Part shown: one piece after another, positions 52,815 through 59,800 of the stretch
How positions within the stretch are numbered: the first letter of the stretch is position 1
Layout: each line of letters opens with the position of its first letter
Program-made: the position numbers and the translations under genes
NCBI GenBank assembly: GCA_010093705.1
Contig: MU006092.1
Span: 316,623 to 380,622, forward strand
Origin: Patellaria atrata CBS 101060
Lineage: Eukaryota
Length of the DNA stretch: 64,000 nt
Direction: 5' to 3'
Notes under the pieces: model-generated
Databases searched by the model: none
What the model saw: only the letters and a program-made list of their open reading frames with translations
Told to the model about the DNA's origin: nothing

Positions 52815-53369
52815 TCGATGGTGGAGGATCGGTAGTGAGCTCCTATATGATTTCTATCGTGAATTGGGATGAAGTCTTGTCGTTGAGCACCTTGCTCTGC
52901 ATGGACCATATTCAAATTTTCGTGTATCGTTCTACTTCACGTCTCTCTGTATTTACACTCATACTGTAATATTCACGGTCTTGGTGTAGGACTTGACTTG
53001 GCCTCGTTGCATGGAAGTAGGAAGGATGAGGAATCTAGACTATTGAACACGAACACCAGATCAGTAAATGTCGCCCTTTATCGCTTTGCAGTTGTCTCTG
53101 AGCTTGCATCGTTGAGAGTGGCGACCGACACGTTCTTGTCAGTGTGGCCAACTATCCGTATCGATAAGGTATTAGTATTCTCAGTATTTCATCGGTATTG
53201 TATCGAATATCATAATACCTTAACAATACTCTTGGCATTTTAAGATTTTTTTATATTCTTTAGATGTTGAAGTATGGGTCCCCTTATTAGACTGAAGATC
53301 TTGGTGGAAAGGATAATCAAGTATATCTCCTACTGCCTAACGCTAGTTATTAGTATCATTCCTTTAACA

Positions 53370-53451
53370 CAGCTGCCTAGTAGGTATCAACGCTGTTGCC
53401 TGCATGTTCTCAGTTGCCTAGTAGGTATAAACGCTGTAACCTGCATGTTCT
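53370..53451 (+). repeat. 41-bp tandem duplication in the hAT left arm
   Basis: CAGCTGCCTAGTAGGTATCAACGCTGTTGCCTGCATGTTCT followed by a near-identical unit. Confidence 0.85.
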
Positions 53452-53857
53452 CATGTATTTAAACGCTCTTTAGAACAGTCATTAAACAATCGAGCGATTA
53501 TCTTGATCATTTTCAGCACCCTTACGTCTGACATTAGAATTCAACTAAAATATTATCGTTTTCTTAGAAATTTAATTAAAATAAAGATACTCTTCGTACG
53601 AAGGGATTTTATAGCTATGAACAACATCTATAGCTATTCTAAGATAGAAGGCACGAGGGCGTGCCTACGTGCCTACCTGTCCACCTGTCTACTGGCCCAC
53701 CTGCCTACCTGCCAGTTTGTACAAAATACATCTTCTTTTTGAATTTCTCTTCTTCTCTTCTTCTCTCCTTCTCAATCTTTGATTTTAGTAACTCAAAGTG
53801 TAAATACTCAGCTTAAACCTATCGTACGAAGGCTAATATTACTATGGTATAGCCAAT

Positions 53858-54271
53858 ATGCAAGTAGTTCTCTATAACCCAGCGATCACGGCTGCCGCTA
53901 ACGCGAACCGCAACCCGGTGCTACTCGTAACACAGCAGCAATTGGCTCCGTGGTGTCATAGCCCACAGAATAGAGCACTTCTGGCCGTCGGTGGAGGTGT
54001 TGATGTTGAGTTCGTACGCGACTCTATCACACCCGAGCAGATTGGTTCTCATAGGCAGTCATATGTCAATGGATTCTTATCCAGTCTCGTGGAGGTGATG
54101 TTGATCCTTGTGCGGCTTGTCGTACGAGAGGTTTTCGTCCCTTCCTTAGTTATCACCGCGCTGAGGGACACTTTGGCGGAACATGCGCTAACTGGAAATG
54201 GCGCGACCATGCAGCACGCTGTTCCGTACGAGCTGGTGGTCCAGATGAGCCTGCTCAAGGAGCCTGGGTGA
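53858..54271 (+). CDS. hAT-internal accessory ORF of unknown function, convergent with the transposase (possibly truncated by a C-to-T stop)
   Basis: 137-aa ATG ORF inside the TIRs, preceded by a CT-rich 5'UTR-like tract and TGCCTAC-like repeats; more GC-rich than the flanking arms. Confidence 0.6.
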   Translation: MQVVLYNPAITAAANANRNPVLLVTQQQLAPWCHSPQNRALLAVGGGVDVEFVRDSITPEQIGSHRQSYVNGFLSSLVEVMLILVRLVVREVFVPSLVITALRDTLAEHALTGNGATMQHAVPYELVVQMSLLKEPG

Positions 54272-54817
54272 TTGGACCTGGTTTAGGGGTTGACGGAGCT
54301 GACGGCACCGCCCCTGGGAATGCTTTATGCTGGACGACGATGAGGGGCTTACTTCCCAAAATGCTATAATCATTGGTTAAGCAGAGCTTCGTACGAAGTA
54401 TTCTTTGGCGTTTAAGCGTTCTGGCGTTTCGGTGTTCTGCTTTGCCTAGCTATCCAGGGCTGTTGGTAGCACTCAGACGTGATCTGTACCTTTACGTGTG
54501 TCTGAGATTAGTAGCCATTAGGTGAAACTAAACAGATCGTACGAACCTTTCAATAAATTTTTTTGTTTTGCCCAATGTTTAAGACATTCAGTATGTTCTA
54601 ACTCTCTTGAACTTAAGCGTGATCTTTCCCATGATACCGTACGACGAGCTGCTGAAAACACTCGTTCTGGTTCATCGCTCATTGCTGGAATTGAGAGGAT
54701 CTCAATTGCAAGTATAGATAATCGTGGAAACCGAGCTCTTTGAGTATCAGTTAACCACCATTTAATAGGTGAAATGTCCCCAATATCGTACGGATCTTGG
54801 TTGATATAGTCTTCAAA

Positions 54818-54981
54818 TGTAACAGGCTAGAGCCTAGTGGTATGAGCGCGCCCTGCATCCGAAGATCAGCCAGTAATATTTTCCTCAAACCTGCCTTCAG
54901 ACTCTTCTCTTCTTCTTTATCTTGATTGTAGATAGCATCTGGACTAGATAGTTGGAACACAATTACTAGAGGCCGCTCACA
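54818..54981. mobile_element. Solo LTR (164 bp) inserted in the transposase C-terminal region
   Basis: TGTAAC...CTCACA with 5-bp TSD TCAAA (54813-54817, 54982-54986). Removing it restores DEFEDYINQDPYDIGDISPIKWWL. Confidence 0.88.
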
Positions 54982-56620
54982 TCAAACTCATCTCCACTTA
55001 AGGGAGCCTTATTAAACCACTCAATTTGATTAAGAACACGTTCAAAATCAGTCATATTCTCAGGTAGAGTTCTTCTCTTTTCTTCGTAAGATGCTGATAA
55101 CGGTACTGAACAGGTTTTACTCCATTTTTCCCAGTATAATCTAGCAAGCTTAATCATCTGCTCGCCTTTCCCTCTTTCCTTCTTCCAACCTTCCCTAATA
55201 AGCTTTGTACGATAGTAAGGAGTAAAGATTGTCGCAAGAATATGGTAAGGTGAGGTAAGAAGTGTAGAATAATACTTCTTAAAAAGCTGTAAAGCTTTAT
55301 GAAGCTGAGGTCCAAAGTCTTTCTTATATGTACATTCATACTTTTTTAAAAGAATATCAAAACCAAGCATTGTACGAAGTGTCATACCGAATGTTAGAGA
55401 ATGGCCTTGATTTAGAAGCGTTGCCTCATAAAAAGGGCGAAGAATTGTATGGATCGTACGAAGCTTTTCCCAATCTTTATGCGAAAGAGAATCTTCTTCA
55501 AGATCACTATACCATCTCTTAACATACGAGTCAATTTCTTCTTCTTTACTTAGCGCAATATCTATCATAATATACCAGCTATTCCATCTCGTACGATTAT
55601 CAAGTGGAATCATTCTCTCTGCTCTTGTGGTAAAATCTTTCAAATGACGTGTAGAGCTTCAAATATGAACTATAATATTATGAAGCTTTCCAAGTGGCCC
55701 TACCGTACGGAAGGTTGACTGTCTCTACTTTCTTAAGCTGGCTTGTCTTATCTCATATTCCTCTATTGATACTTTAAGTGTAAGACTACTTAGCCCTTGA
55801 GATTCAGTCTGTTCCTCAGCGTCGTACGACTCAAGTAAGTCTAAGTCTATTGTACCTGAAAAGAGAAAGGTTTGTACAGCCAAGTTAACGATATGGCCTA
55901 TACATCGAATTCTTTGAGATGAATAGTCCCATATCAGCTCTTGACTCTTGAAGATATTGACTAAGTAACTGGCAAAGCTTATCATTCGTGGAAGCATTAT
56001 CACCAATGATAGTACCAAGCCTTCATACGATACCATAGTCTTGAAGAACTGGAAGAAGTACCTCAAGTTGTTCACTAGATGAATGGTTTCCTACTTCTTT
56101 AAGGCCAAGCAATGCTCTTTAAGGTATCTCCTCCGTACGATCAATGAAATGCGCGATAATACCAAGAAGAAGTATCCGATTTGGAGAAGTCCAGATATCA
56201 AGTGAGATATGGATGTTTACAGGCGCTGATTGAAGTTGTTTTCGTACGAGATCTTTTTGGAAAGAGAAAGAAGCTGTAATTCTGTTCGAAATTGTTGAGT
56301 GTGAAGATGGAATAAAGCTCTCTGACTGCGGGTTAAGAGCTAGACAAAATGCGCGAAATTCAGGCCATTCAATCATACGGAAGGGGAGTCTTCGTACGGT
56401 AAGTAGTTGAGATAGCGCTTTATCAATAATATCTTGATTAAGAATCTTTTGTAAGACTAGCTGATCCAGCTCATTTAATCCAGTATACTCGCTTGACCGG
56501 TAAAGATCTAATAGTCCTTGGAAAGCGTCTTCCCCTATCTTCGTACGAGGCTCTTCTAAAGCTATATTGTGTGTTTTAAGAAGATACTTCTTAAAGTTTG
56601 TACTAATTGTTGTATTATAT

Positions 56621-56818
56621 TGGTGAAATTGAGGGTCACGCAAGGTGGCTGGATATCAGATGGCTGGATATCAGATGGTTGGGGACCAGGATAAGTGAGA
56701 TGGTTGAGCAAGCAATACTATAAGATAGCATAGGCACCCACTCCAGATAGTTGACAATCAATGAACACCCTTACCCTTCTATCTACTACTTTAGCTCATA
56801 CCTGTGTGGATTTTATCA
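56621..56818. mobile_element. Solo LTR (198 bp) inserted in the BED finger
   Basis: TGGTGAAAT...ATTTTATCA termini, TSD TATAT (56616-56620, 56819-56823), internal 15-bp tandem repeat TGGCTGGATATCAGA x2. Removing it restores QCKYNCSYNTTISTNF. Confidence 0.85.
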
Positions 56819-59800
56819 TATATGAACAATTATATTTACACTGATAGAGAGGCTTGTTTTGATCGTTTCGTGGAGGGTCTCCTATAGTTTGTATACGCGT
56901 ATGTTTCCAAAGAAGGGATCTTGTTGGTCGTACGATAGAAGATGATGGTTCTGAGGTAAAACTTATTATTGAATCGATTTAAGAAGCCATTATTTAGGAG
57001 AAGAACCACCTTATCGTACGTAAGGGTGATGAATTCTATTAAATTGTGGGTTTCGCTATATTAAGCGAAGTATTGTTAAGGTATTATTAAGGTATTTATC
57101 GATATCGATCCGATACAATACTAATCCGTATTCGATAGTATCTAATACTAAAGTATTATTGGCCACACTGGTTCTTGTGTGTCCTATTTCAAATTAGCGC
57201 TAGTCCGACTAGTTCTAGTATCTATTTATTGTCCGTTCTCGTATACTTCACTCTTTCCTCAATCTGCTTCCCATGGGGAGTACGTGGTTCATCAGCCTCT
57301 ATATCGATATCCCGTTTCTGGACAGTGTTGTGAAGTACTCTAGAACTAGAACTAGTTCTAACCTCTTTGGGAATTGCGCTTGGCACAAGGCTAGAACGAG
57401 TAGGTCTCCCTCCACCGACGATCCATCAGCAAAGTCACCTTCAGCTTTTGTTCAGTTCCTTTCATCAAACCTGGTTGTATAATTCTTTTGACTGTCCTAT
57501 CCGTCAGGTGACACTTTAAGGAAGATTCTCTTACGTTTGTGGGGACCTTTGTCCTTGTCGGCGACGAATCTTCAGGTATGTATTTTGTCAGAATAGAGCC
57601 CTGCCCATCCGATGCACATATATCTCCAATTCTTTTGGTAAGGGTTCCATCGGCAACGGCTCGTCCATAATGTCATCACTGCTCTATCTTACAGACCTCT
57701 CTAGAGTAGGGATCGGAAAGAATTTCCAGAGCCATTGAGACCCCACAACTCATAGACCGGTCATATATGCACGACTTTCGTCAGTAGAAATACCATGATC
57801 GTCTTCCATTTCTTATATTTCAGATGGATCTCACTCCAACTCTAGGAGCATTATCAGGCAGATTTGTCAACCTGGAGGACCCAGTGCAAAATTCACGGTT
57901 TGCACTCACCTACCGTTTCATTACAACCATCGAGATTGGATGGACTAAGTATTTCGCGACTGGTTATGTCTATATTGAGCAAAAACGATTATACCTTTCA
58001 TTAATGCCTTAACCTATCGATGTTTCGCCTCTAATCCCCGAAGCACAGCCGTTCATCTATATGTCTTAATACTTGCAATCTCTAGTTCTTCTTTCTCTGC
58101 CCCGTTTTCACAAAGAAATTCCGGTCCTTTAGTGATTGCGGCTATCTACTACAAAATAACTGTCGGTGTTCCCGGACGAGGAACACTTGTATAGTCTGGA
58201 TGGTTTATAAACATGCGACGCGTAAAGTATTTTAGACGAACGGAAGATCGTTGCTATACTATATATTCGATGAGGACGGTCAAGTACTGTTCATCCCCGT
58301 TTCCCGCATTGTACGTGCGGGTTTCCTACGCCGCTCAAAATTTCCTTTGCGGGCGAATGTTTGGGGACGAATGCGGGCCATACCACATAAAACTCGGCAC
58401 TTCACAAATGGCTCTATAGTGGATACCATTCGCGAGATGATTTCCCAGCGTCAAATGAGCGAACCACGGTCGAATGTCAGGCTGAACTCATCTTCGCGTC
58501 CCACCCATAGAGTTCAACATTAGCATTCAGACGCTCCCGTCGGTACTCTTCACCTAATCCTTCATATGTATAGATACGTTCTCACTACGTCACTCACCGG
58601 TCGCATGAGCTTTAGTCACACATTTTGTATTTTCAAGCTTGCTACATCTGGGTTGGTGTTCCTGGTCGATTCGTCAATTACCGTAGCCAATACTTGGCAG
58701 TATCTGCGCTTGAATGCTTCAGGACATTGAGGGACACTGTGCTCGTTCAACAGAGAGCTTGACTGAATAGCATACAGCCTCATCTTCGCTTCATACGGTG
58801 GGATTGTCGTCAGGAGTATACCAGGAGCCGACCGAGTTTCACCGGCTCTCCCGGAGCTAATTGCAAGATTTCGAGTAAAGAGTTCGCCATTGAAAATATC
58901 ACCACATGGATATCTGATTGCTCCCTTGTTAACTGTTTTGGGGACCTGAAAGTTGGTTTCTAAGTTAGGGAATCACAACTTCTATGGGCCGGACAGGACT
59001 AGACAGGACGAGAAGTTTTGATACTATGACCCTAAGATTCTCGTACGGCCTATGGGTGGATGGTGCCTCTCTGTTCTGAGTAATTCAAGAGATCTAGAAG
59101 AGACGATCTACAGAAGATCGTCGTGCAGTTTATACGTTTCCCACACAATGCTATTTGTACCAAAGTCGGACCTAGGGCTTTTTGTTCAGTCTTCTCAGTT
59201 CCCTTTATTTTCCTGCAAAAGAGTAAAATTTCACCGCAACTTCATTATTAAGGGTTTAGGCTGTCGTTTACTGCACCGCCCTTTTCACAATCATTTGTCC
59301 GGCAGCGGTACCTACGCACTTTGATCTTCAAATTTGGCACCGTTCTTTATTCCATCGATAATATTGTAATACCTATGTCACATTGCATATATCAGCTCAC
59401 AATTCCTTTTTCTTTATTTCATTTAACTTCCTGTGCGACTCGATGATTTCTCAAACAGATCATGGATGATTCGCATATGAATTCGATCCGGAGCAAGTGT
59501 GAGTCCCGTTTGAACCGGTGGTATTTCAATGATATAGTAAGCGGGCATGTATGTGTTGGGCACACGTCTGCGAATACCAACCGGAGCCTCAGTGGTTCCA
59601 CGAAACTCGTCATTTTGAGTTTTCAGCCGGTATAACCAAGCGTTTTGATATGTGATATTATTCCATCCACACCGGCTGCCACGTGGGATTTCCATACATG
59701 TACTCCCGATATACATACGATATACGCACGCGGCTATACAGGCAAGGCATCCTGTATTGATGAGCAAGGGGTCCTTGCTATATGGCTGGGTCCCCTTTAT

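Follow-up and report, generated by a model that had tools for sequence, protein, structure and literature searches.

Dispersed arrays of the palindrome TCGTACGA in a hAT transposon of Patellaria atrata and in unrelated transposon classes, and their association with DUF3716 genes

The 64,000-nucleotide stretch analysed here (hereafter the window; contig MU006092.1 of Patellaria atrata CBS 101060, positions 316,623 to 380,622) contains a decayed hAT transposon through which a short palindromic word, TCGTACGA, is repeated from one side to the other. The word is under purifying selection at the level of the DNA, and its array is confined to the element. The same dispersed array occurs in several unrelated transposon classes, of both class I and class II, and it co-occurs with a gene for a DUF3716 protein, which the hAT element also carries. 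We propose that the sites are an array of docking sites that would be read by the DUF3716 protein and would keep the element active, and we put the probability of this reading at about 0.5. The array of the window is as follows.

53595..57020: array of 19 exact CGTACG, 11 of them reading TCGTACGA (direct count; expectation 0.35)

A first-pass annotation of this DNA had listed 19 positions of CGTACG, all of which were exact matches on recount, and its observation that a pyrimidine precedes each of them was likewise correct (15 T and 4 C), as was its count of 11 sites with the full palindrome. CGTACG is the commonest hexamer of the element, where a first-order Markov model predicts 0.35 sites against the 19 seen, a 54-fold excess. 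The whole window holds 31 copies, a number reached by none of 100 dinucleotide-preserving shuffles (mean 8.28, maximum 18), and 12 of them lie in the other 60 kb, close to the dozen estimated earlier. The flank of this host background differs from that of the array sites, as 8 of the 12 outside copies are followed by G (CGTACGG) and none reads TCGTACGA. When both strands of the array sites were folded together, the sole informative flank was T at position -1 (29 of 38), which makes the word an 8-base palindrome, TCGTACGA, and not a longer one. A hexamer excess of comparable size was not found in any other 4-kb stretch of the window. The possibility raised in the first-pass annotation, that other repeats might be equally enriched, was not borne out within the window either: the excess is confined to the element, and the insertions which it later received contain no site.

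Evidence for selection on the word comes from the transposase gene, which the array crosses.

54518..56655, minus strand: remnant of a hAT transposase, broken into four pieces that lie in three frames (56119-56655, 55725-56090, 54966-55658 and 54518-54826), from the list of open reading frames (ORFs); the dimerisation domain lies in 54518-54826, and relatives at 30 loci have 27-63% protein identity to the window transposase

Up to 20 hAT relatives were compared for each transposase piece. The site columns common to them are tnpA 87 and 137, tnpB 89, tnpC 22, 67, 150 and 191, and tnpD 13 and 62. At tnpA 137-138 the codons are GTA-CGA in 16 of 16 relatives, and the preceding codon varies between L, V, I and T yet always ends in C. 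Where a relative and the window have the same amino acid, they also have the same codon in 203 of 226 motif codons, compared to 1353 of 2788 codons elsewhere, a result that places the constraint on the DNA and not on the protein; outside the motif, synonymous sites are otherwise half randomised at such divergence. Distant relatives thus keep the same synonymous codons, the result looked for when the first-pass annotation suggested this comparison, and the conservation at codon level supports its view that a selected, element-wide signal is involved and that repeat-induced point mutation (RIP) is not the source. That the motif occurs in various reading frames also holds: all three codon phases are used in the element and in intact ORFs elsewhere. 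In 12 stop-free ORFs, 163 sites fall in phases 68/46/49 and are read as RT, xVR or (S/P/A/T)Y(D/E/G/A/V). The array-bearing stop-free ORFs are 1,147-2,077 aa long, and in each of six arrays examined the exact sites outnumber the sum of all eighteen one-mismatch variants.

Other copies of the element were obtained as contigs from public sequencing runs of three organisms (X1, X2 and X3). Their differences from the window copy are mostly transitions, and together with the relatives they identify four array sites which have decayed in the window copy.

55085..55090: decayed site CGTAAG; 55089 A>C in all covering contigs of X1, X2 and X3; column tnpC 191 is a site in relatives
55206..55211: decayed site TGTACG (CpG transition); column tnpC 150/151 is an exact site in 17 of the 20 listed relatives
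55371..55376: TGTACG, probably a decayed site; two relatives, L037 and L052, have the exact site at column tnpC 96
56024..56029: decayed site CATACG; 56025 A>G in X1, X2 and X3; column tnpB 22 is a site in L072 and L083

The bases of the other copies restore CGTACG at 55085 and 56024, and the decay of the window copy removes sites and does not add them. Judged from these copies, the sites are older than the decay, which answers a check suggested earlier. The one-transition variants that had been counted into the array therefore fared differently: those at 55206, 55371 and 56024 stand, CGTAAG at 55085 is added to them, and CATACG at 56374, only 19 bp from a real site and with no relative having a site near that column, is probably there by chance.

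The sites are spaced more evenly than random placement allows. The smallest gap between them is 86 bp, and only 3 of 100,000 random placements kept all gaps at least that wide (P = 3e-5). When the three later insertions were removed and the four decayed sites reinstated, the restored element of 3,385 bp had 23 sites with a mean gap of 138.5 bp (standard deviation 38.4, coefficient of variation 0.28). The left end of this insert-free element is separated from the nearest site by about 180 bp and the right end by about 150 bp, and the 21 other sites lie in between. Similar values were obtained elsewhere: in 492 gaps pooled from 36 loci the median was 133.5 bp and the mode 120-139 bp, and in 17 long arrays gaps below 50 bp made up 7%, whereas an exponential model predicts 30%. 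The periodicity for which a test had been suggested was not found, neither strict nor helical. Between 3 and 200 bp the Rayleigh power rose only towards the long end, with no peak near 10.5 bp. The pooled histogram also has a smaller second peak at 60-69 bp (27 gaps, compared to 16 and 14 in the adjacent bins), at about half the main mode.

These other loci were found by scanning metagenome contigs by DNA pattern alone, the query being three TCGTACGA separated by 92-122 and 127-157 bases. At least 121 loci matched. Among the matches listed, 39 loci had a median gap below 60 bp and were ordinary short-period tandem repeats, with no hAT relative and no DUF3716; 18 had a median gap of 60-94 bp, with no hAT relative and one DUF3716; and 64 had a median gap of at least 95 bp, 30 of them with hAT transposase relatives and 12 with DUF3716. 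Applied to viral contigs, the same query matched 3 loci, a contig of 71% G+C and two short-period tandem repeats, all of which were set aside. Pfam scans of the ORFs assigned array loci to the following transposon classes in addition to hAT.

Copia-like: L067, with 57 sites spread over 7.3 kb, an uninterrupted ORF of 1,730 aa that contains 41 of them, and an antisense DUF3716 gene
Gypsy: L061, with 42 sites
LINE: L044, with 30 sites
IS3EU-like (integrase core and Clr5): L053 (with DUF3716), L064, L068, L107 and L114
pogo-like DDE_1: L020
Large DEAD-helicase ORFs: L035 and L080, both with DUF3716

The description of the array as a feature of a hAT element was thus too narrow, as it is also found in retrotransposons and in other DNA transposons. 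The borders of an array can be sharp: at one locus (L010) a stretch of 3.65 kb contains 27 sites, whereas the 13.2 kb of flanking DNA contain none, and no convincing terminal repeats were found for the element there. Long runs of 12-bp tandem repeats adjoin this array-bearing element (L010:5571-6505). The site columns of IS3EU-like relatives coincide in part. Those of the accessory gene agree within a lineage and differ between classes, so that each lineage has written its own array.

One of the two helicase loci deviates in its word. At L035:1-10201 an ORF of 2,077 aa with OrsD and DEAD-helicase domains adjoins the DUF3716 gene. The locus has 80 TCGTAC, of which 38 are TCGTACAA and 20 TCGTACGA; they read mostly TCGTACAAT on one strand and lie in tandem units of 30-42 bp within the coding sequence. 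Possibly the word exists here in an oriented form, TCGTACAAT, that goes with a divergent DUF3716.

The second component of the system is the accessory gene, which in the window is convergent with the transposase gene.

53858..54369, plus strand: accessory gene, divided between two frames near 54070, whose product is a six-cysteine DUF3716 protein (PF12511, 35.2 bits against a cut-off of 22)

The gene is one base short near 54070 compared to most other copies, which splits it. Its two frames, both inside the hAT element, are the only matches to DUF3716 in the window. Intact relatives of 174 aa (P0001) and 178 aa are annotated in the same strain, P. atrata CBS 101060. A profile made from 12 sequences found DUF3716 in 13 loci among the matches listed, all of them with dispersed arrays, and the DUF3716-bearing array loci include hAT, Copia-like, IS3EU-like and helicase-bearing elements. 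Among those matches, 8 of the 11 arrays with 12 or more sites over a span of at least 2.4 kb had a DUF3716 gene in the same contig, three of the 8 being one family. The suggestion that the protein of the accessory ORF is involved gains support from this co-occurrence with the array across transposon classes.

The DUF3716 family is large, with 1,199 clusters at 50% identity in a profile search, and PF12511 scored above the cut-off in 109 of 110 aligned relatives. Six cysteines (C85, C88, C99, C110, C113 and C122) are near-invariant in the 110 sequences, in the pattern C-x2-C-x10-C-x10-C-x2-C-x8-C. The predicted fold is compact and confident, with pLDDT above 90 over residues 21-125. In the ESM Atlas only DUF3716 clusters were found, all of them eukaryotic, with Ascomycota the commonest phylum among members with a record. 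When longer DUF3716 proteins were screened for fused effector domains, one had DDE_1 and the rest had DUF3716 alone. That one (P0082, a database protein of 469 aa) joins a pogo-type DDE_1 domain to DUF3716; either the two are truly fused, or the gene model has merged two genes of a pogo-like element that carries the accessory gene.

The cysteine order resembles that of the Zn2Cys6 clusters of Gal4 and Hap1, which also have six cysteines ordered C-x2-C ... C ... C-x2-C ... C. Zn2Cys6 domains bind CG-containing half-sites as dimers. DUF3716 differs in its longer first loop (x10) and in a conserved N-terminal part, residues 21-80, which is absent from Zn2Cys6. No family-model or solved-structure match places DUF3716 in the zinc-cluster family PF00172, whose Pfam model matched 0 of the 110 members at E up to 1.

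In the mechanism that we propose, the TCGTACGA sites would form a docking row for a sequence-specific, probably dimeric, protein binding double-stranded DNA, at a density of about one site per 120-150 bp everywhere in the element but in the outermost 150-180 bp. The likeliest reader would be the element's own six-cysteine DUF3716 protein, which would coat the element at less than nucleosome spacing and, once bound, would keep it open and transcribed in the manner of an enhancer or anti-silencer. It would be because the bound protein keeps the element active that unrelated classes each took up a DUF3716 gene and wrote the word through their coding sequence. The parts of this proposal differ in strength. 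It is likely that some protein binds the word, and on balance DUF3716 is the probable binder. Activation or anti-silencing as the effect of binding is plausible but tentative. We offer even more cautiously the wider suggestion that the DUF3716 gene, together with TCGTACGA every 120-150 bp as a second code over the protein code, may be a portable reader-and-array module of Ascomycetes, acquired independently by at least six unrelated transposon classes (retrotransposons and DNA transposons) as a counter-measure to silencing or repeat-directed mutation. The factor acting on the TCGTACGA promoter element of a Dothideomycete, discussed below, could then belong to the same protein family.

DNA binding by DUF3716 would fit its near-invariant cysteines and its confident compact fold, and two reports bear on it in their available text. 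One of them gives Neurospora NCU05718 as orthologous to a DUF3716 protein of Fusarium (PMC10776026). In the other, recombinant NCU05718, which has no annotated DNA-binding domain, directly binds double-stranded TTAGGG repeats (PMC4650311).

Several observations weigh against the proposal. The target of NCU05718, in the part of the report available (PMC4650311), is TTAGGG repeats and not TCGTACGA. Foldseek against solved structures returned only HAP1 zinc-cluster/DNA chains (E about 5, probability 0.12), a wide structural search of the DUF3716 fold with VIA-align 2 gave nothing at Z >= 2, and a profile search of PDB sequences with DUF3716 found no match. The association between array and DUF3716 was drawn from loci chosen by the motif, and the relatives share ancestry, so their counts are not independent events. 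No DUF3716 gene is present in the available DNA of the long arrays L044 (LINE), L061 (Gypsy) and L068, the contigs of which are cut at their ends; a relaxed DUF3716 search in the Gypsy and LINE contigs gave ordinary CCHC knuckles only. The window copy is dead, with a broken transposase and a frameshifted accessory gene, and provides no evidence of activity. Finally, the word is also found in a host promoter of Pseudocercospora fijiensis, where a host factor fits equally well.

The main rival explanation is indeed that a conserved host transcription factor binds the sites and is exploited by transposons, which would collect them for transcription, DUF3716 being unrelated. In the available parts of two reports, TCGTACGA is the palindromic core of 'element A' of the Pfcyp51 promoter of P. 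fijiensis; it stands once in the wild-type promoter and acts as a dose-dependent enhancer, an increase in copy number from one to six raising expression proportionally in promoter swaps, and the authors regard it as most likely an enhancer with an unknown factor (PMC6637983; PMC8252799). The 8-bp palindrome is identical to that of the array, the fungus belongs to the same class (Dothideomycetes), and the effect depends on copy number. The difference is that in the available text the copies number one to six and stand close together in the promoter of a host gene, without an element-wide array or a transposon, and that a transposon origin is only speculated on by its authors. The arrays of Gypsy L061 and LINE L044, which have no DUF3716 gene in their available, end-cut contigs, are also in line with a host factor. 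On the other hand, enhancers do not usually follow even steps of 120-150 bp through coding regions, kept at the same codons, and TCGTACGA is absent from the host DNA (60 kb) that surrounds the element. Nor would a host factor account for the joint occurrence of arrays and DUF3716, which extends to at least five classes of transposons. We consider it unlikely.

A variant of the docking proposal keeps the same reader and gives it a shielding role: the row of protein would block the assembly of nucleosomes or heterochromatin, cytosine methylation, or the homology pairing that triggers RIP. A nucleosome with its linker is longer than the pooled median gap of 133.5 bp, and the array-bearing transposon classes all face the same repeat-directed defences. 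The word contains neither CpA nor TpG, so the classic RIP change cannot strike it, and in the dead copy the sites decayed by CpG transitions. However, the window copy has been mutated despite its array, and the sole functional data on the word favour activation, as far as the available text describes them (PMC6637983). Shielding thus seems rather improbable as the main role.

An action of the word in RNA would be suggested by its self-complementarity and its presence within transcribed retrotransposon ORFs, as self-complementary 8-mers could drive RNA-RNA pairing for dimerisation, packaging or formation of double-stranded RNA. In P. fijiensis, however, the word works from a promoter, according to the available text (PMC6637983). 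It also occurs outside coding sequence, as well as in cut-and-paste DNA transposons whose genes converge, and with its T/A flanks it forms the kind of DNA palindrome that is typical for proteins binding as dimers, which makes a role in RNA very unlikely.

It is still less probable that the sites are binding sites of the hAT transposase. hAT transposases do bind short repeated words, and maize Ac has a short word repeated in its subterminal regions, no more than a few hundred bases from the ends, where it serves the transposase. The array shares with Ac-type repeats a short word present many times in a hAT element. Ac-type repeats are concentrated at the ends, whereas the array of the window avoids the outer 150-180 bp, fills the interior, and has counterparts in Copia, Gypsy, LINE, IS3EU-like and pogo-like elements with other enzymes. 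The subterminal 130 bp hold a different repeat, GGTATT/GTATT; all 4 copies of GGTATT in the element are within these outer 130 bp (53140-53270 and 57040-57170). GGTATT is probably the true transposase-binding repeat, distinct from the array.

RIP, mutational bias or chance as the source of the excess, suggested by the many transitions of the window copy relative to other copies, is rejected by the intact ORFs of 1,147-2,077 aa which bear arrays, by the codon columns shared across distant relatives and by the codon identity counts, as well as by the 54-fold excess without parallel in other 4-kb stretches of the window, the three site-free inserts and the loss, not gain, of sites in the decayed copy.

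The closest known system is VANC of the VANDAL elements of Arabidopsis, which are Mutator-like. As the available text describes it (Hosaka et al. 2017, PMC5735166), there is likewise an accessory gene beside the transposase and a short word multiplied in the same element, and the proposed logic is the same, with a DNA-binding protein of the element acting on its own copies. VANC is described there as localised in non-coding regions and its targets as often forming tandem repeats (PMC5735166), whereas the sites of the present array are dispersed in even steps of about 140 bp through coding sequence in three phases. Pfam detected no homology to VANC in the accessory protein and its relatives, only DUF3716. 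The array further differs from VANDAL in its fungal host and in the occurrence of the module in class I as well as class II elements.

Two fungal elements have comparable gene arrangements. For Boty we know of no motif array. The additional antisense gene brtn of Boty-like Ty3/Gypsy elements of Botrytis cinerea is on the opposite strand to pol, according to the available text (Zhao et al. 2011, Virology 417:248; PMC8365987), as is the DUF3716 gene of the Copia-like locus L067. REP9, an IS3EU-superfamily transposon of Zymoseptoria tritici, has two DUF3716 genes and may be compared with L053, the IS3EU-like element with both DUF3716 and an array; the available text on REP9 does not mention a motif array (PMC8232023). 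No prior account of such arrays was found in the literature searched, supplements excluded.

The structure of the hAT element of the window and of its later insertions is given below.

53132..53139: target-site duplication, left copy (8 bp, GTTCTTGT), read from the sequence; the same 8 bases recur at 57171-57178
53140..57170: whole hAT element, 4,031 bp, a decayed copy, delimited by inverted ends and duplication and with a Dimer_Tnp_hAT match
57171..57178: target-site duplication, right copy GTTCTTGT, read from the sequence
53260..53533: later insert 1, 274 bp including one TTAGA copy, with TG..CA ends, a 5-bp duplication and no CGTACG; skipped by the contigs of other copies with a 5-base overlap
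54813..54981: later insert 2, 169 bp, with TG..CA ends, a 5-bp duplication (TCAAA) and no CGTACG; skipped by the contigs of other copies
56616..56818: later insert 3, 203 bp, with TG..CA ends, a 5-bp duplication (TATAT) and no CGTACG; skipped by the contigs of other copies

The ends are 12-bp inverted repeats, CAGTGTGGCCAA, at 53140-53151 and 57159-57170, and the contigs of other copies begin at 53140 and end at 57170. The element thus has the 8-bp target-site duplication and short terminal inverted repeats of the hAT superfamily, and it also has the C-terminal hAT dimerisation domain, PF05699, in 54518-54826 on the minus strand (E 1.1e-16, 60.9 bits against a cut-off of 21.4). A BED zinc finger gave no Pfam match in 56796-56978 on the minus strand, the single N-terminal ORF of the window that was scanned; in one relative (L006) zf-BED scored 20.3 bits, just below the cut-off of 20.6, and PF02892 is present in some database relatives.

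Where the first-pass annotation had two later inserts, there are three, and its statement that they lack sites applies to all of them. The inserts differ from one another and are private to the window copy; they resemble solo long terminal repeats of three families. The family of insert 2 is probably abundant, since the depth of the bins containing it (54728-55015) was several-fold above that of adjacent bins in X1 and X2.

Genome defence against repeats is unusually harsh in fungi, and to our knowledge no system of the present kind is common to class I and class II elements. The array is easily searched for and provides a cheap marker for such elements in assemblies. If the proposal is true, a function and a candidate DNA target could be assigned to the DUF3716 family, which would also offer a candidate for the factor behind the promoter palindrome linked to fungicide sensitivity in a banana pathogen. 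The arrays would represent a DNA-level code laid over the coding sequences of transposons and selected at single-codon resolution across deep divergence, and the DUF3716 protein with its sites would possibly be the first transposon-encoded chromatin or anti-silencing system in fungi.

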